Positions 59,583 to 64,000 of a stretch of DNA of 64,000 nucleotides are shown here, one piece after another. Both the position numbers and the translations under genes were made by a program. The stretch is taken from positions 92,473-156,472 of the forward strand of contig JACPNK010000005.1 in NCBI GenBank assembly GCA_016185525.1. The letters are read 5' to 3'. This DNA is from Candidatus Yanofskybacteria bacterium. GTDB lineage: Bacteria > Patescibacteriota > Minisyncoccia > 2-02-FULL-40-12 > IGHO2-12-FULL-4. The notes beneath the pieces are model-generated. The model was not told where the DNA came from. It did not search any database and saw only the letters and a list, made by a program, of their open reading frames with translations. How positions within the stretch are numbered: the stretch's first letter is position 1; each line of letters opens with the position of its first letter.

Positions 59583-60032
59583 GTGTCTGTCATAGAAAAA
59601 GTAAAAAAAATCAGAGAGGCTACCAGTTTATCTGTCGGCGAGATATCTAAGGCTTTGGTTGAAGCGGCCGGAGACGAGTTTCGGGCTTTGCAAATTTTGA
59701 AAGACCGGGGGGTTCAGATTGCCAACAAGAAGTCCTCTAGAGAAATCAAAGAGGGGATTGTAGAGTGCTATGTGCATGGCAACAGAAAAATAGGTGCTAT
59801 GGTTGAACTTGGCTCGGAAACGGACTTTGTCGCTAAAAATGAAGAATTTAGGAAATTAGCTCACGAATTGGCAATGCAGGTTGCTTCAATGGAACCCAAG
59901 GACTCTGAAGATCTGCTTTCGCAGACATTTATCAAGGACCCCTCAATGACTATCGCCGATCTGGTCAATCAGTATATTGCCAGACTGGGAGAAAATATAA
60001 AAATCAGAAAAATAGTCAGATTTGAAATATAA
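59583..60032 (+). CDS. tsf: elongation factor Ts (short form)
   Basis: N-terminal UBA-like region. TDFVAKNEEF. C-terminal IGENIKIRKIVRFEI. Confidence 0.85.
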   Translation: MSVIEKVKKIREATSLSVGEISKALVEAAGDEFRALQILKDRGVQIANKKSSREIKEGIVECYVHGNRKIGAMVELGSETDFVAKNEEFRKLAHELAMQVASMEPKDSEDLLSQTFIKDPSMTIADLVNQYIARLGENIKIRKIVRFEI

Positions 60033-60034
60033 TC

Positions 60035-60637
60035 ATGTACCTCATCATACCCCTCTTCATAATTTTTGTTTCTTTGTTTGGTGTTATGCTTATCGTTTGG
60101 CGTAAGATCCCATACTTAAAGAAAATTACCAATCCGGCGCCAATATCATTTTCAGAGTCCGTGCCACTTGTTCTGCTTTCAGATTTTTTTCCGGAGGTTG
60201 CCAACTATCTCAAAAAATCAGATCTCACAGCCTACAGAAATCATCTAATGAAAGAGTTGGAAAAGTTTTTGCGCAGACTAAGGGTGCTTTCGTTGAAGCT
60301 GGATAGTTTTACCAACAAATTGCTGGCCAAGATTAAGTCGGAAAATCTAAAAAACGGGCATACCTTGGCGCAGGAATTTAAAGAAGCAGCCGAAGTAAAA
60401 ACAATTCAGAGAAAAGAAAGTTTTACAGAGCGCGCTAAAAAAGAAGAACAGGCTTTAATCATTGAAATTGCCAAAAATCCTAAAAACCCTGAACTTTATA
60501 AAAAACTGGCCGAAGTCTATCTTTCTGTTAAAAATTTTTCCGATGCCAAAGAGTCGCTGGAGACGGCTTTAGAACTTGATCCGGAAGACCAGCAGACGAG
60601 GGAAAAACTGGAGACAGTAAGGAGGCTATTGTCTTAA
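60035..60637 (+). CDS. membrane-anchored TPR-like hypothetical protein
   Basis: N-terminal TM. C-terminal helical repeat ending ALELDPEDQQ. Confidence 0.4.
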   Translation: MYLIIPLFIIFVSLFGVMLIVWRKIPYLKKITNPAPISFSESVPLVLLSDFFPEVANYLKKSDLTAYRNHLMKELEKFLRRLRVLSLKLDSFTNKLLAKIKSENLKNGHTLAQEFKEAAEVKTIQRKESFTERAKKEEQALIIEIAKNPKNPELYKKLAEVYLSVKNFSDAKESLETALELDPEDQQTREKLETVRRLLS

Positions 60638-60709
60638 GCCGCCTTAGTTCAGTGGCAGAACGCCATCCCCGTAAGATGGATGTCCCCAGTTCGATTCTGG
60701 GAGGCGGCT
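60638..60709 (+). tRNA. tRNA-Thr (anticodon CGT)
   Basis: Hand-folded: acceptor GCCGCCT/AGGCGGC, anticodon stem-loop CCATC-CCCGTAA-GATGG, T-arm CCCAGTTCGATTCTGGG. Confidence 0.8.
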
Positions 60710-60764
60710 CTTGAAAAGTTATTCTAGAGTTACTTTACTGAAAAAATGTTATAGTTTACTTAAC

Positions 60765-60838
60765 GCCGGAGTAGCTCAATGGTAGAGCAGCCGATTTGTA
60801 ATCGGCAGGCTTGTTGGGTTCGAGTCCCACCTCCGGCT
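60765..60838 (+). tRNA. tRNA-Thr (anticodon TGT); variable region appears to be 7 nt
   Basis: Acceptor GCCGGAG/CTCCGGC. Anticodon stem-loop GCCGA-TTTGTAA-TCGGC. T-loop TTCGAGT. Confidence 0.65.
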
Positions 60839-60840
60839 CA

Positions 60841-61482
60841 ATGGCTTATAATTTTTATAGTTCGAGAGAGTATAAAAAAAGACAAAGCTTGTTGGTAAAG
60901 GCTGCTTGGAAAAGAGGAGACTTTGATTTTTTTAGGAAAAAAGAAGAAAGAGTATGTAGGCGAAATGATTGTGGCGAGGTTTTTACTGTTAAGCCAAGCG
61001 ATTCAAAGGTTTTTTGTTCTCATTCCTGTTCTGCCATGGTAAATAATAGGAATCGACGCATTGTTAGATATTGTCTAAGTTGCGAAAAAAAAGTATTAAG
61101 GCCAAGTTACAAATATTGTTCTAACGCGTGTCATGTTGTTCACAAATTTAACTCCTATGTAAAAAGATGGAAGAAGGGGGAGGAGAGTGGTTTAAAGGGT
61201 AGCCTGGGTATAGTATCTAGACACGTTAAAAGATATTTAAGAGAGAAATATAGAAATAGATGCTGTTTGTGTGGCTGGTCAAAAATTAATCCCAAAACTA
61301 ATGTAGTTCCGTTAGTGGCCGACCACATTGATGGAAACTGGCAAAATAATAAGGAGAAAAATTTGAGACTATTGTGTCCAAACTGTGACTCTTTAACTCC
61401 AACTTTTTGCGGATTAAATAAAGGGAGAGGGAGGAAAAATCGAGCCGTAAGTAAAAGAATTCGAATCAGTAAATTATTATAA
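60841..61482 (+). CDS. HNH endonuclease (Cys-rich, homing-type) inserted in the tRNA cluster
   Basis: CCLCGW...HIDGNWQNN...LRLLCPNCD HNH core. Several CxxC pairs. Start trimmed to the ATG after the tRNA. Confidence 0.7.
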   Translation: MAYNFYSSREYKKRQSLLVKAAWKRGDFDFFRKKEERVCRRNDCGEVFTVKPSDSKVFCSHSCSAMVNNRNRRIVRYCLSCEKKVLRPSYKYCSNACHVVHKFNSYVKRWKKGEESGLKGSLGIVSRHVKRYLREKYRNRCCLCGWSKINPKTNVVPLVADHIDGNWQNNKEKNLRLLCPNCDSLTPTFCGLNKGRGRKNRAVSKRIRISKLL

Positions 61483-61544
61483 TTATTTAAGGAAAGTTAA
61501 ATTTGATTATGGCTAGAAAGCTTAGTTAAATGGACAGATTGTTG

Positions 61545-61628
61545 GGGCAGTTGGTGGAGTAGTCAAACACACCACGCTGTAAACGTGGCGGCCTTAGGCC
61601 TTCGGGGGTGCAAATCCCTCACTGCCCA
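61545..61628 (+). tRNA. tRNA-Tyr (anticodon GTA), long variable arm
   Basis: Acceptor GGGCAGT/ACTGCCC. Anticodon stem-loop CCACG-CTGTAAA-CGTGG. Variable hairpin GGCCTTAGGCC. T-arm GGGGGTGCAAATCCCTC. Confidence 0.7.
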
Positions 61629-61639
61629 CAAAAAACAAA

Positions 61640-61710
61640 GCCAGCGTAGCTTAGTGGTAAAGCACCCCCTTGGTAAGGGGAAGACCGTCGGTCCGATTCC
61701 GACCGCTGGC
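61640..61710 (+). tRNA. tRNA-Thr (anticodon GGT)
   Basis: Acceptor GCCAGCG/CGCTGGC. Anticodon loop TTGGTAA. T-arm GTCGGTCCGATTCCGAC. Confidence 0.7.
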
Positions 61711-61713
61711 TCT

Positions 61714-61872
61714 ATGAGTCAAGATAATTTAATAAAAATGAAGTGCGGAAAGTGTAAGCGTTTCAATTACCACACTTTCAAGAATAAAAAGAAAGTGGAG
61801 CGGACCATCACTTTAAAGAAGTTTTGTAAGTGGTGCCGCGCGCACACCGAACATAAAGAAACCAAAAAATAA
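61714..61872 (+). CDS. rpmG: 50S ribosomal protein L33
   Basis: MKCGKCKRFNYHTFKNKKK...KKFCKWCRAHTEHKETK. ~52 aa. Start trimmed to avoid the tRNA. Confidence 0.85.
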   Translation: MSQDNLIKMKCGKCKRFNYHTFKNKKKVERTITLKKFCKWCRAHTEHKETKK

Positions 61873-61886
61873 TTTTGGTTTCTTTT

Positions 61887-61957
61887 GGGGATGTCGTTCA
61901 ATGGCAGGACTCTTCTCTCCAAAAGAAGGTATTCCCGTTCAAGTCGGGACATCCCCG
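61887..61957 (+). tRNA. tRNA-Trp (anticodon CCA)
   Basis: Acceptor GGGGATG/CATCCCC. Anticodon stem-loop CTTCT-CTCCAAA-AGAAG. T-arm TCCCGTTCAAGTCGGGA. Confidence 0.75.
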
Positions 61958-62060
61958 CAGGAAAGGGCTGGACAATTCCCTCAACTCCCGCCATGCACCG
62001 CGTGGGGTGCATGGTTGCCCTGAATCCTACGTGGTTCAGGGCGTCACACCCTACAAATCA

Positions 62061-62087
62061 AAAAGATGGCCAGTTGCCATCTTTTTG
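62061..62087 (+). terminator. terminator after tRNA-Trp and the structured trailer
   Basis: agatggc-cagtt-gccatct followed by ttttt. Confidence 0.65.
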
Positions 62088-62140
62088 ATTTATGATAGTA
62101 TCATCCCAAATTTGATCTTTGAAAATTAAAGGAGAAAAAA

Positions 62141-64000
62141 ATGGGAAGCCAAAAGGGAGCAAAAATTGGTTTTGCTTCTCGCGTTGACTATGGCTCGTCA
62201 GGTTTCCGCAGTGGACTTGTCAGGGCAGGGTTTGAGATTTTTGTTAAGGAGCAAGTTAACTTTATTGTAATGCCGGGCGGGTTGGTGGCAAAAAAGGCGT
62301 TAACTGAAAAAATGAATGCTTGGATTAAAGAGCGGTTAAGTATTAGAAAGTCTGGCGGGTCTAAAAAAAACAATGGAAGAACTAAATTAGGAAAAAAGAA
62401 AAACGGCAACGGCCTTTCTGCTTCGGAAAAGTTGAGAATAAAAAAAGGAGAACTGCGGGCGGAATTCTTGTCCGGGGTTGCCAAAGAACTCGCCGAACTT
62501 ATTCCGGTAACGACTGTCACGGATCCCGAAGATGCGACCAAGAAAAAAAGTCTGGATTTGTTTATCACAACCAGTCCGGCTTTTGACGGAGAAATCGGAG
62601 AAGATGTGGCCCAATTGTTGGCCGAACTGCGCCCAGATATAAAAGTCTGGAATGTCGGCGGTGATCGTTTTCCGGTTCTTTACGTGGATAAGCTTATCTG
62701 GGCGCTAGCTCCATCCAAAGCAACCTGGATGCGAGGCGACTACTTCAGCACTCCCGTAGAAAGAGTTATTAAGGACAAAATAAAACAAACTTCGCAAAGT
62801 TCACCTGACCGTTTTGTTGTCGGTTGTTTTGGTTCAAGCATCAACAAAACCAAAGGTGAGTTAAAATATGCTTACGTTTCCGTTCCGGCACTTTCACGCT
62901 TAGAAGAAACGCGGGTCAACGAAAACCAGATTGGCGTTTGTGTGCTTGAGTACCCTGCCGATAATAGCGATTCGCTTTGGCGCAATTACAGCTTAAAGGA
63001 CGTGGTTAGTCGGGAGTTAGACTTTATTGTTCCACCGACAGAAACCAGCAGTCTTCAGAAAAAAATGATTGACATCATGAAGACCAGGGGGTGGGCTACT
63101 CCGGGAATATTGAGAAATGCTCTTAAAGATATTCCTTTGGATAAGATTAAGGCTGGAATGGCGGAATTAATGAAGTTAAAAACCTTCAGGCGTATGGGGG
63201 AAAACTGGCCTGGTATTGTTTACAAAGAAAGTGGCAAGAAGTATTACTTTGATCTTGACTTCATCCAACACCGTCTAAAATATGCTTTGCCGAACGGACC
63301 ATTCAAAGAAGATCGTATCGTGTCTTTTTCTTGTCTTCACACCGGTTCCATAGAAACTGACTACGATTTTTTTAGAAACGAACTACCCAAAATTATTCTA
63401 AAACATAACGTAGATATTCTTGTTAATGTCGGCGATCTCATAGAGGGTATGAAGCATTTTTTGGACCGAAAAGGTGAGATTATTGCCGGAATGAATAATT
63501 ATACAATCCAAGAAGAAGCTGCTGCTAATCTGGTGGGTGCTGTCATGGAAGAAGTGTTCAACATTCGTTTTGCCAAGGCTTTAGCGGGAGAAACGGGAGA
63601 AGTAACTCCAGACATAGTTCATTCCATCGTTAAACAGAGTTTGATTGATTTGAAAAACAAACTAGGCAACCATGACCTTTGGCAGATAGATGACGGACAT
63701 ACTCCTTTGCGAGTTTTTGAACTCACTATAGTAAATTATTTAGCCGACAAAATTACAGAAACACTTGCTAAAAAAAAGTTGTCTTGTTCGGACCTACGGG
63801 GAATAGTTGAAAGTAAAATTATCCGTAGTGATCTTTTTGAACTGCCATCGGGCTTGAAAGTTTCCGTTCAGCATCCGCATATGGCTCGGGCCAAAACCAC
63901 TTCTCTGCGTCCGCAGGAAATGCTGGAGTTTGCCAAAAGGCAAGGGTGCCAAGTTGCTATCGGCGGAAATTTCCACGTGAGCGAAAATATTGAAGAGTGG
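62141..64000 (+). CDS. large multidomain protein, 3'-truncated by the window end; C-terminal half carries calcineurin-like metallophosphoesterase motifs
   Basis: Strong RBS aaaggagaaaaaaATG. Open frame runs to the window end (>619 aa). It is not in the ORF track, presumably because there is no stop in the window. Motifs CLHTGS..., VGDLIEG, GNHDLW, GGNFHVSE. Confidence 0.5.
   Translation, partial: MGSQKGAKIGFASRVDYGSSGFRSGLVRAGFEIFVKEQVNFIVMPGGLVAKKALTEKMNAWIKERLSIRKSGGSKKNNGRTKLGKKKNGNGLSASEKLRIKKGELRAEFLSGVAKELAELIPVTTVTDPEDATKKKSLDLFITTSPAFDGEIGEDVAQLLAELRPDIKVWNVGGDRFPVLYVDKLIWALAPSKATWMRGDYFSTPVERVIKDKIKQTSQSSPDRFVVGCFGSSINKTKGELKYAYVSVPALSRLEETRVNENQIGVCVLEYPADNSDSLWRNYSLKDVVSRELDFIVPPTETSSLQKKMIDIMKTRGWATPGILRNALKDIPLDKIKAGMAELMKLKTFRRMGENWPGIVYKESGKKYYFDLDFIQHRLKYALPNGPFKEDRIVSFSCLHTGSIETDYDFFRNELPKIILKHNVDILVNVGDLIEGMKHFLDRKGEIIAGMNNYTIQEEAAANLVGAVMEEVFNIRFAKALAGETGEVTPDIVHSIVKQSLIDLKNKLGNHDLWQIDDGHTPLRVFELTIVNYLADKITETLAKKKLSCSDLRGIVESKIIRSDLFELPSGLKVSVQHPHMARAKTTSLRPQEMLEFAKRQGCQVAIGGNFHVSENIEEW

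Follow-up and report, generated by a model that had tools for sequence, protein, structure and literature searches.

A 701-residue Parcubacteria protein predicted to join a degenerate and a motif-bearing metallophosphoesterase fold through a winged helix

The window analyzed here is a 64,000-nucleotide stretch of DNA from Candidatus Yanofskybacteria, and its 3′ end carries tRNA genes and a ribosomal protein gene followed by a large open reading frame. Genes for tRNA-Thr lie at 60638-60710, 60765-60839 and 61640-61712 and one for tRNA-Tyr at 61545-61629; they are followed on the forward strand by rpmG, encoding ribosomal protein L33 (61714..61872; NCBIfam L33, E = 9e-15), and by tRNA-Trp(CCA) (61887..61958; ARAGORN and Rfam), both of which belong to a conserved upstream synteny. 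Rfam found five tRNAs and nothing else over positions 60000-64000. The order tRNA-Thr/Tyr/Thr, rpmG and tRNA-Trp ahead of the reading frame is present just as an initial annotation, made from the sequence alone, had described it. That annotation also placed a terminator after tRNA-Trp, where a stem of 11-16 bp that folds strongly is visible, although a consensus scan calls no terminator, and it mentioned a neighboring HNH endonuclease, for which the Pfam match exists but is sub-threshold (HNH_3, E = 0.018). In many bacteria the position after rpmG and tRNA-Trp is commonly occupied by secE-nusG. With approximate E. coli sequences as queries, tblastn gave no homolog of NusG or L11 in the window or at the loci of the family's other members.

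Between tRNA-Trp and the reading frame, the consensus scan detected a promoter-like site on the forward strand (62074..62101) made up of a -35 element TTGCCA, a 16-nt spacer and a TG-extended -10 element TAGTAT. A TTG and a TAttAT-like hexamer are kept in the spacers of the related loci L011, L012 and L015, and the site may act as the promoter of the gene, a role read only from its sequence. A Shine-Dalgarno sequence, AGGAG, is found by direct reading at 62130..62134 (forward strand), 6 nt ahead of the ATG, in agreement with the ribosome-binding site noted earlier. From the ATG at 62141 the frame is stop-free to the window end at base 64000, so that the coding sequence on the forward strand (62141..64000) comprises codons 1-620 in the window; it was missing from the supplied list of open reading frames because it leaves the window before reaching a stop, as had been supposed. 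Six independent Logan assemblies that overlap the window with 0 mismatches carry the frame 81 codons further to a TAA, 3′ of which is a perfect hairpin with a T-run (AAAAACCCGATTGTAATCGGGTTTTTT). The complete product is 701 aa long, the gene finishing 246 nt past the window at a would-be coordinate of 64246, and it is 100% identical to the 701-aa 'hypothetical protein HYX21_02705, Candidatus Yanofskybacteria'. Since the frame reaches a stop and a terminator in six assemblies, the gene is not a pseudogene, and the observation of a large uncharacterized open reading frame with metallophosphoesterase (MPE) motifs after rpmG and tRNA-Trp is confirmed.

A search among 1.84 billion (1.84e9) representatives returned ~211 clusters at E ≤ 1e-3. 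Unannotated and confined to Patescibacteria/Parcubacteria, the family has sharp limits, and its members are nearly always full-length; we found no literature on it, and one member is named 'helix-turn-helix transcriptional regulator' at NCBI. Some members carry extra N-terminal helical repeats, in which Pfam did not confirm a Myb/SANT assignment.

The C-terminal MPE domain (aa 385-701, of which aa 385-620 fall in the window at 63293..64000, forward strand) is the catalytic candidate, as indicated by Foldseek, BFVD, Pfam and PHROG. All motifs quoted in the initial annotation as an ordered MPE set are present and correspond to the columns that never vary among family members. The first, motif I, reads Cys398-Leu-His400 (tgt ctt cac, 63332..63340) and follows beta-strand 389-397 in the AlphaFold2 model, with Cys398 in the position held by Asp in nearly all MPEs. 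Motif II is Gly431-Asp432 (63431..63436), the presumed bridging metal ligand, and is followed by a helical insertion at aa 454-500; motif III is Gly509-Asn510-His511-Asp512 (63665..63676), motif IV is His578 (63872..63874), and in motif V, Asn610-Phe-His612 (63968..63976), Asn replaces the first His of GHxH. Of 191 full-length members, all have C398, H400, G431, D432, G509, N510, H511 and H578 and 164 have D512; N610 and H612 occur in all 190 aligned members. This complete invariance argues for catalysis. The superfamily motifs II (GD), III (GNH[DE]) and IV (H) thus occur in order, and in place of the canonical DxH of motif I and GHxH of motif V every member has CxH and NxH, which are variant ligands rather than losses.

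The AlphaFold2 model of the full-length protein (pLDDT 92, pTM 0.90) shows the four-layer alpha/beta sandwich that marks membership in the metallophosphoesterase (calcineurin-like) superfamily. Foldseek comparison of this model with the PDB gave 91 matches at E ≤ 1e-3, the best 50 of which are all MPE-fold proteins, led by PolD-DP1 (1.2e-7), Mre11 (1.7e-6) and SbcD (6.7e-6), and the Mre11/SbcD-type fold proposed earlier is therefore upheld as the nearest structural relative together with PolD-DP1. BFVD gave phage MPE proteins and proteins labelled 'DNA polymerase II small subunit', with E-values down to 6e-11. By sequence, the only recurrent profile match to the C-domains is a phage profile, phrog_7339 'DNA repair exonuclease' (13/22 C-domains, best 3.9e-6); TIGR00619 sbcD gave weak matches in 2/22, at E ≥ 0.0027 and far under the cut-off. 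Pfam Metallophos was sub-threshold in 16/50 members at E ≤ 0.1 (best 2e-4), and the window protein scores 14.8 bits against PF00149, below the gathering threshold of 21.5. Pfam matched no families other than Metallophos and winged helix-turn-helix (wHTH) ones. Sequence searches of the PDB returned no MPE and only weak wHTH matches, whether the query was the protein itself, the full-length profile or that of the C-domain. Alignment by hhalign of either half with the single sequences of PfMre11 (1ii7) and EhDbr1 (5uki) was insignificant, with a probability below 1% for EhDbr1, and the nuclease subfamilies are therefore not discriminated.

The N-terminal ~380 aa had been described as lacking any recognizable motif, a view replaced by AlphaFold2, Foldseek and profile evidence for a degenerate MPE fold and a winged helix. 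The first of these, aa 1-295 (62141..63025, forward strand), was modelled alone with a pLDDT of 90.9 and matched Mre11 best in the PDB (2.4e-7), followed by LpxH, PolD-DP1 and the B-subunits of Pol delta and Pol epsilon; there were 158 matches at E ≤ 1e-3, and the best 50 are again all MPE-fold proteins. Each half thus matches the MPE fold independently of the other, a point that the initial annotation had proposed to check. SRxDYGS, GGL and SPAFDG occupy the metal-ligand positions of this N-domain, so that motifs II, III and IV are all absent and no metal ligands are left, which marks it as a pseudo-enzyme. Its conserved residues are non-metal ones, namely S13, R23, D149, D166 and E261-N262. 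The Lys-rich linker reported in this half is a real Lys/Gly-rich stretch, but it forms the disordered tip (aa ~71-91, pLDDT ~50) of a helical hairpin at aa 51-120, and its length differs among homologs. The following region, aa ~296-384 (63026..63292, forward strand), is a wHTH domain with a linker; it has three helices and a beta wing in the model, the family profile matches small wHTH and Z-alpha-type chains in the PDB (E 0.005-0.03), and Pfam HTH_24, HTH_11, MarR and DeoR match it in some members. The predicted architecture of a degenerate MPE fold, a winged helix and a motif-bearing MPE domain in one chain is solid. Since hhalign detected no sequence similarity between the N- and C-terminal halves that would indicate an internal duplication, the two-fold architecture rests on structure prediction.

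We propose that the protein is a phosphodiesterase of nucleic acids built like an Mre11 dimer in one chain. It would be a housekeeping enzyme specific to the Parcubacteria lineage, with an asymmetric pair of MPE folds, and we assign this reading a probability of roughly one half. Nuclease-type MPEs rank first in Foldseek both for the full model (PolD-DP1, Mre11, SbcD) and for aa 1-295 alone (Mre11), consistent with this proposal. Only 1-2 orders of magnitude in E-value separate them from purple acid phosphatase and LpxH, so that the fold alone leaves the substrate unfixed. The C-domain could instead be a phosphodiesterase or phosphatase for small molecules or nucleotides (for example a hydrolase acting on pyrophosphate or on (oligo)nucleotides, cyclic or linear, or a protein phosphatase) coupled to the wHTH, making the protein an enzyme-regulator with the dead N-domain pocket as ligand sensor. 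Such activities dominate the MPE superfamily, and LpxH, purple acid phosphatase, Lmo2642 and 5′-nucleotidase are among the significant fold matches; a polar pocket of the N-domain is strongly conserved (S13, R23, D149, D166, E261, N262), MltG, a cell-wall protein, is often encoded next to the gene, and the NCBI label of one member fits a regulator. Against this, nuclease-type MPEs top both fold searches, 'DNA repair exonuclease' is the sole recurrent profile match, and no kinase, cyclase or nucleotide-signaling gene recurs near family members, and we regard such a function as rather unlikely.

The genomic neighborhoods of homologs bear on whether the gene belongs to the housekeeping complement of the lineage. 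A tRNA-Trp gene lies <200 nt upstream of the homolog in L011, L012, L015 and L039, where, as in the window, rpmG-tRNA-Trp precedes the gene, and the L33 gene is upstream in L005 and L039 too. The order tRNA-Tyr/tRNA-Thr/rpmG/tRNA-Trp/gene recurs beside a homolog of only ~34% identity (L039), indicating old vertical inheritance among housekeeping genes. In other loci dnaG-rpoD is found upstream, metK and uvrD are flanking, or MltG and a ClpB-D2-like AAA+ protein are encoded downstream. The ClpB-D2-like AAA+ gene recurs in 7 loci and MltG in 12, but both lack operon-like spacing and are absent from the window's lineage; they were therefore set aside as partners and treated as synteny rather than as a system. 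Because neighbors differ between lineages and are often convergent, the context gives flavor and no pathway. The initial annotation had proposed looking downstream for a partner such as an SbcC-like ATPase or a protein kinase, and in ~27 neighborhoods no SbcC/Rad50-like ATPase, SMC protein or protein kinase is encoded, so that the adjacent ATPase expected of the Mre11/SbcD family is missing from them. A giant downstream reading frame was considered as a Rad50-like partner and rejected, since it encodes a membrane-anchored surface protein with beta-helix/tail-fiber-like repeats. This surface-protein gene itself begins with an HTH_17-like domain, and the HTH_17 gene belongs with it.

These neighborhoods also speak to the earlier suggestion of a defense or mobile-element protein, considered here as a nuclease inserted at the tRNA-Trp gene. 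With three diverse members as queries, PADLOC-DB v2 returned 0 defense families at E ≤ 1, and no relatives were found in IMG/VR, GenBank phages or PLSDB plasmids. Neither an integrase or recombinase nor an SbcC-like partner is encoded at any locus, and the GC content, 0.41-0.45, is similar to that of the flanks. The adjacency to tRNA-Trp persists to ~34% protein identity, other members sit between the core genes rpoD, uvrD, metK and mltG, and the HTH_17 gene goes with the giant surface-protein gene. This idea is largely refuted and we consider it very improbable, leaving the interpretation given in the initial annotation partly supported as a whole.

Mre11/SbcD offers the closest comparison for the proposed phosphodiesterase. 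Both halves of the protein share its fold and find it among their best PDB matches, and the GD, GNH(D) and His motifs and the helices after motif II are common to the two. Mre11 is a dimer of two MPE domains, whereas the 701-aa protein has two MPE folds in a single chain, and we propose that its N- and C-domains may pack in an Mre11-dimer-like manner. The protein differs in having one dead fold, a wHTH between the folds, CxH and NxH in place of DxH and GHxH, no nearby SbcC/Rad50 gene, no capping/DNA-binding domain by Pfam (Mre11_DNA_bind/SbcD_C) and no significant sequence similarity. In the proposed mechanism, the C-domain would hold a two-metal center with an alpha site of Cys398, His400, Asp432 and His612 and a beta site of Asp432, Asn510, His578 and Asn610. 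This center would hydrolyze a phosphodiester bond in nucleic acid, with His511 as the acid protonating the leaving group. The metal-free N-domain would stand in for the second protomer of Mre11/SbcD dimers. Positioning of a DNA or RNA substrate would fall to this domain together with the winged helix and the pair of helical hairpins that follow motif II, joined by the N-terminal repeats in those members that carry them. The gene would be its own transcription unit, with the promoter-like site and the terminator, and would need no adjacent partner. Metal binding, the nucleic acid substrate, the pseudo-dimer geometry and a cellular role in end-processing/repair or RNA processing are all inferred.

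Partner-free nuclease action has a precedent in a Pseudomonas putida MPE, reported to be a stand-alone Mn-dependent ssDNA endonuclease acting without a Rad50-like ATPase, with a single canonical MPE domain and a gene in an Lhr-Core/ligase repair operon (PMC7826289). It makes such action by the 701-aa protein feasible; we detected no sequence relationship between the two proteins, and no Lhr-Core/ligase operon of this kind surrounds the 701-aa gene.

An inactivated MPE fold retained as a structural module has its precedent in the polymerase B-subunits, which match the N-domain and have phage counterparts in BFVD; PolD-DP1 is the top match to the full model (1.2e-7 in Foldseek). Polymerase B-subunits also combine an MPE fold with a winged-helix-type domain. 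In the 701-aa protein no OB-fold was identified and the domain order differs, and unlike PolD-DP1 and the B-subunits it has an active and an inactive MPE in one chain; we know of no DP2-type polymerase in bacteria. The inactive N-domain and its matches to the Pol delta and Pol epsilon B-subunits might suggest a non-catalytic scaffold, like the inactive MPE domains of the eukaryotic polymerase B-subunits or Vps29. Every metal-ligand position of the C-domain is kept in 191/191 members, which is unexpected for a pure scaffold and makes this reading extremely improbable.

The cysteine of motif I raises the question of a C-domain acting like the lariat-debranching enzyme Dbr1, as a 2′-5′ phosphodiesterase or another RNA-processing phosphodiesterase, whose substrates might be lariats of group II introns or other RNA, branched or modified, in intron-rich reduced genomes. 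We know of no debranching requirement in bacteria. In Dbr1 the Asp-to-Cys change at motif I is invariant and essential (PMC4176325). The 701-aa family shares this Cys in 191/191 members, within a CxH motif, along with the GD, GNH[DE] and His motifs; the gene sits amid translation and RNA genes (rpmG, tRNAs, rpoD), and the central wHTH is weakly similar to Z-alpha and dsRNA-kinase wHTH domains. Dbr1 structures (4pef, 5k71, 5uki and others) are nevertheless not in the best 50 of the 91 PDB fold matches, where DP1, Mre11 and SbcD are found, and neither the lariat-recognition loop nor the Dbr1 C-terminal domain was detected by Pfam. The insignificant hhalign result for EhDbr1 and the difference in motif V (NxH rather than HxH) likewise count against a Dbr1-like activity, which is unlikely. 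The family further differs from Dbr1 in being bacterial and in having two MPE folds and a wHTH.

A large part of bacterial diversity falls within Patescibacteria, whose small genomes are missing many of the standard enzymes of repair and RNA processing and hold much conserved gene content that is unannotated. The 701-aa family is conserved across Parcubacteria lineages amid core information-processing genes, with fully invariant active-site residues including a Cys-for-Asp substitution that otherwise marks the eukaryotic enzyme Dbr1. Speculatively, and with low probability, it might be an unrecognized core nucleic-acid-processing enzyme of Parcubacteria, combining a Dbr1-type Cys-His site with a fused pseudo-dimer and replacing a lost housekeeping nuclease, for example in 2′-5′ debranching or RNA/DNA end-processing. 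As a clean case of an active enzyme fused to an inactive counterpart, the protein can be compared to an Mre11 dimer in one chain; it is also a concrete expressible target with a high-confidence model. Identification of its substrate would close a gap in the picture of DNA or RNA maintenance in Parcubacteria.

The open reading frame that begins at ATG 62141 on the forward strand, 6 nt after a Shine-Dalgarno sequence (AGGAG, 62130-62134, +), is a single frame of 620 codons without a stop to position 64000 and is missing from the mechanical ORF list only because the window ends before its stop codon. Among 5.8 billion proteins searched was P0001, a 701-aa protein 100% identical to this ORF and labelled 'hypothetical protein HYX21_02705, Candidatus Yanofskybacteria bacterium'. 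Six independently assembled contigs, with 0 mismatches in the window overlap, extend the frame by 81 codons to a TAA, past which a perfect stem and T-run form a terminator. The nearby frameshift or stop that had been proposed as a refutation is absent, confirming that the ORF is real and not a pseudogene.

The AlphaFold2 model of P0001, built from a 50-sequence alignment, is a confident single body (pLDDT 92, pTM 0.90) in which pLDDT falls below 50 only at residues 1-3 and 77-88. The latter residues, the Lys/Gly 'linker' of the initial annotation, form the end of an extended helical hairpin spanning aa 51-120. In Pfam, Metallophos at aa 392-470 is sub-threshold (14.8 bits vs a cut-off of 21.5), and this family is touched by 16 of the 50 members and winged-helix families by several. 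The best Foldseek matches of the full model in the PDB, PolD-DP1 (1.2e-7), Mre11 (1.7e-6) and SbcD (6.7e-6), followed by Lmo2642, purple acid phosphatase and LpxH, agree with the phosphoesterase fold that had been predicted. To identify the N-terminal half, in which no motif had been recognised, aa 1-295 were modelled separately (pLDDT 90.9), and this region also matches the metallophosphoesterase (MPE) fold, with PDB matches to Mre11 (2.4e-7), then LpxH and DP1, and also to the Pol delta and Pol epsilon B-subunits, which are inactive. Its motif I-III positions read S13-R-x-D-Y-G-S, G-G47-L and S-P-A-F-D149-G, so that the metal ligands are lost, while several polar residues are nearly invariant despite this loss. 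A winged helix-turn-helix (wHTH) of ~80 residues separates the two MPE folds; in profile searches it weakly matched small wHTH and Z-alpha chains as well as Pfam HTH_24, MarR and DeoR. No sequence similarity between the N- and C-halves was detected with hhalign, indicating that a duplication, if any, is ancient, or that the halves are separate in origin. P0001 is very probably composed, in order, of a dead MPE domain, a wHTH and a live MPE domain.

In an alignment of 191 members, comprising all full-length sequences recovered, C398, H400, G431, D432, G509, N510, H511 and H578 are invariant in 191/191 and N610 and H612 in 190/190, and the ordered phosphoesterase motifs proposed for the C-terminal half thus fall on invariant columns. 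In this domain (aa 385-701) the MPE motifs stand in their usual order, with two residues systematically exchanged: motif I has Cys in place of Asp, and motif V has Asn at the position of its first His. Its sequence predicts a set of ligands of the two-metal type that is fully conserved and has Cys and His at the alpha site; a pure scaffold is given almost no weight. The motif-I Cys, present in 191/191, is a chemical feature in common with Dbr1, the enzyme that debranches RNA lariats, in which this change is invariant and essential (PMC4176325), and would suit a Dbr1-like 2'-5' or RNA-processing enzyme. However, Dbr1 is absent among the best 50 of 91 PDB fold matches of the full model, its loop and C-terminal domain were undetected in the family, and hhalign against the verified EhDbr1 sequence was insignificant. 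A Dbr1-like enzyme is improbable; we take the Cys for a piece of common chemistry that is worth following, and do not count it as a sign that the family belongs with Dbr1. The sole recurrent outside sequence match was phrog_7339, a phage protein family that carries the annotation 'DNA repair exonuclease' and was matched by 13 of 22 C-domains (3.9e-6 at best), and sbcD gave two weak matches among the C-domains. The nearest neighbours are nuclease-type both by fold and by this only recurrent profile match; a small-molecule or nucleotide phosphodiesterase coupled to the regulator-like wHTH is an unlikely reading.

A word-indexed protein search gave ~100 relatives of 650-770 aa, none with a precomputed Pfam domain or informative name and, where labelled, mostly Yanofsky-, Sung- or Kaiserbacteria, Paceibacterota, Parcubacteria or Patescibacteria. 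When 1.84 billion cluster representatives were searched exhaustively with the family profile, only 211 proteins matched at E<=1e-3 (151 at E<=1e-30), and no halo of distant single-domain relatives appeared; matches being few, and nearly all of the 211 spanning the whole profile, the family is sharply bounded. One peptide pattern retrieved 26 loci from GTDB species genomes, all Patescibacteria apart from a small number of probably mislabelled bins. Members also turn up on contigs whose labels read Hodarchaeales archaeon, Gammaproteobacteria, Vicinamibacterales and Acutalibacteraceae (P0013, L025, L032, L035); since the distribution is otherwise exclusively Patescibacteria, these contigs are probably mis-binned, and many 'uncultured Candidatus Saccharibacteria' labels may be generic Patescibacteria labels. 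Some members have 170-240 additional N-terminal residues, and the extensions of the longer members lack a Pfam match. In P0131, P0139, P0140, P0118, P0151, P0178 and P0075, the N-terminal 100-240 aa contain 2-3 repeats of a Trp-containing helical motif that look SANT/Myb-like by eye.

Upstream lie tRNA-Thr(cgt), tRNA-Thr(tgt), an inserted ORF, tRNA-Tyr, tRNA-Thr(ggt), rpmG (L33; 61714-61872, E=9e-15) and tRNA-Trp (61887-61958), the layout that the initial annotation had read. The true rpmG start is ATG 61714 (52 aa), two bases past the end of tRNA-Thr(ggt); the mechanical list has instead a 95-aa GTG ORF (61585-61872) overlapping tRNA-Tyr and tRNA-Thr. rpmG and tRNA-Trp are directly upstream of the family gene in the window and in loci L011, L012, L015 and L039, and five other loci have tRNA-Trp within 1-5 kb on the upstream side. 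In L039, tRNA-Tyr, tRNA-Thr(ggt), rpmG and tRNA-Trp precede a homologue ~34% identical to the window protein, indicating that the slot after tRNA-Trp is ancient, not a recent insertion. With E. coli NusG and L11 as tblastn queries, no homologue of either was found in the window or any locus, and for these lineages the proposal holds that the gene sits at the usual place of secE-nusG. A promoter-like TTGCCA-16-(TG)TAGTAT (62074-62101) was located by consensus scan, the TTG and -10-like hexamer are kept in relatives' spacers, and the gene appears to be transcribed as a unit by itself. The 182-nt spacer after tRNA-Trp contains three strong GC-rich hairpins (61990-62092; MFE -74.9 kcal/mol, z = -6.9), unique within the window, absent from the shorter spacers of L011, L012 and L015 and unmatched in Rfam; the third stem overlaps with the promoter-like -35, and the hairpins could represent stacked terminators, a small RNA or an insertion remnant.

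The inserted ORF (60841-61482), between tRNA-Thr(tgt) and tRNA-Tyr, has an HNH motif (…DHIDGNWQNN…NLRLLCPNCD…), with only a weak match to Pfam HNH_3 (E=0.018) and none in NCBIfam. The two tRNAs are 13 nt apart without an ORF in L015, different ORFs fill gaps in the cluster in L011, L012 and L020, and the HNH-like ORF is a separate insertion, probably homing-type and unrelated to the studied gene. For the family itself, PADLOC gave 0 matches at E<=1 with three diverse members, IMG/VR 45 pattern matches with 0 confirmed, and tblastn none in GenBank phages or PLSDB plasmids, and its GC content (0.41-0.45) is as in the flanks. Given these results and the separate HNH-like insertion, the suggested defence or mobile nuclease is not supported and is highly improbable.

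Downstream in the window's lineage are two genes: a small MerR/HTH_17 (BldC/excisionase-like) gene (71-85 aa), convergent with the family gene, and next to it, in divergent orientation, a giant ORF (>2545 aa; L020 13565-21199, L005 12961-16689, L008 12940-17082, also L012 and L018) inside which every contig carrying it breaks. The giant ORF has an N-terminal HTH_17-like domain, one transmembrane helix, then long beta-helix/tail-fibre-like repeats, with weak Peptidase_G2 and bactofilin matches; as a surface protein it was rejected as a Rad50-like partner, and the joining of a cytoplasmic HTH to a giant surface protein is unusual. The partner sought downstream did not emerge, as no SbcC-like ATPase, kinase or integrase recurs across ~27 distinct neighbourhoods. 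Recurring neighbours are housekeeping genes: MltG/YceG in 12 loci, a ClpB-D2-like single AAA+ in 7, metK and uvrD in one clade, and dnaG-rpoD in one locus. The AAA+ recurs just downstream of the family gene in lineages other than the window's (L028 3257-4558, L026 2943-4226, L033 12590-13921, L031 2995-4245, L016 3608-5761, L013 12259-12984, L025 14702-16006), with MltG/YceG usually next and, in L031 and L033, a small HNH-like ORF intervening. This single-ring protein of ~430 aa, whose Walker motifs are separated by a coiled-coil insert, corresponds by homology to the D2 half of ClpB/ClpA and is not a canonical ClpX. Inheritance of the family is vertical and housekeeping-like.

We estimate a probability of roughly 0.5 that P0001 is a nucleic-acid phosphodiesterase. 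The C-domain would hydrolyse a DNA or RNA phosphodiester, and the dead N-domain may take the part that the second protomer plays in dimers of the Mre11/SbcD type. The substrate would be held by the wHTH together with the Lys-rich tip of the hairpin and, where members have them, the extra N-terminal helical repeats. The Mre11 dimer interface is formed by long helices inserted after motif II, and both MPE domains of P0001 have long helices at this position. MPE DNA endonucleases that stand alone, with no ATPase partner, have a precedent in the P. putida MPE (PMC7826289).

The fold and chemistry of the family are already known in kind. The combination of a fused inactive/active MPE pair with an intervening wHTH, an invariant CxH/NxH site, restriction to Parcubacteria and the slot after rpmG-tRNA-Trp appears undescribed, as nothing was found in the literature on this MPE-pair family, called hypothetical in every source. 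P0001 is less a surprise in its own right than a good and clearly delimited target for biochemistry, and its interest would be much higher if the Cys site confers a Dbr1-like or otherwise unusual specificity.
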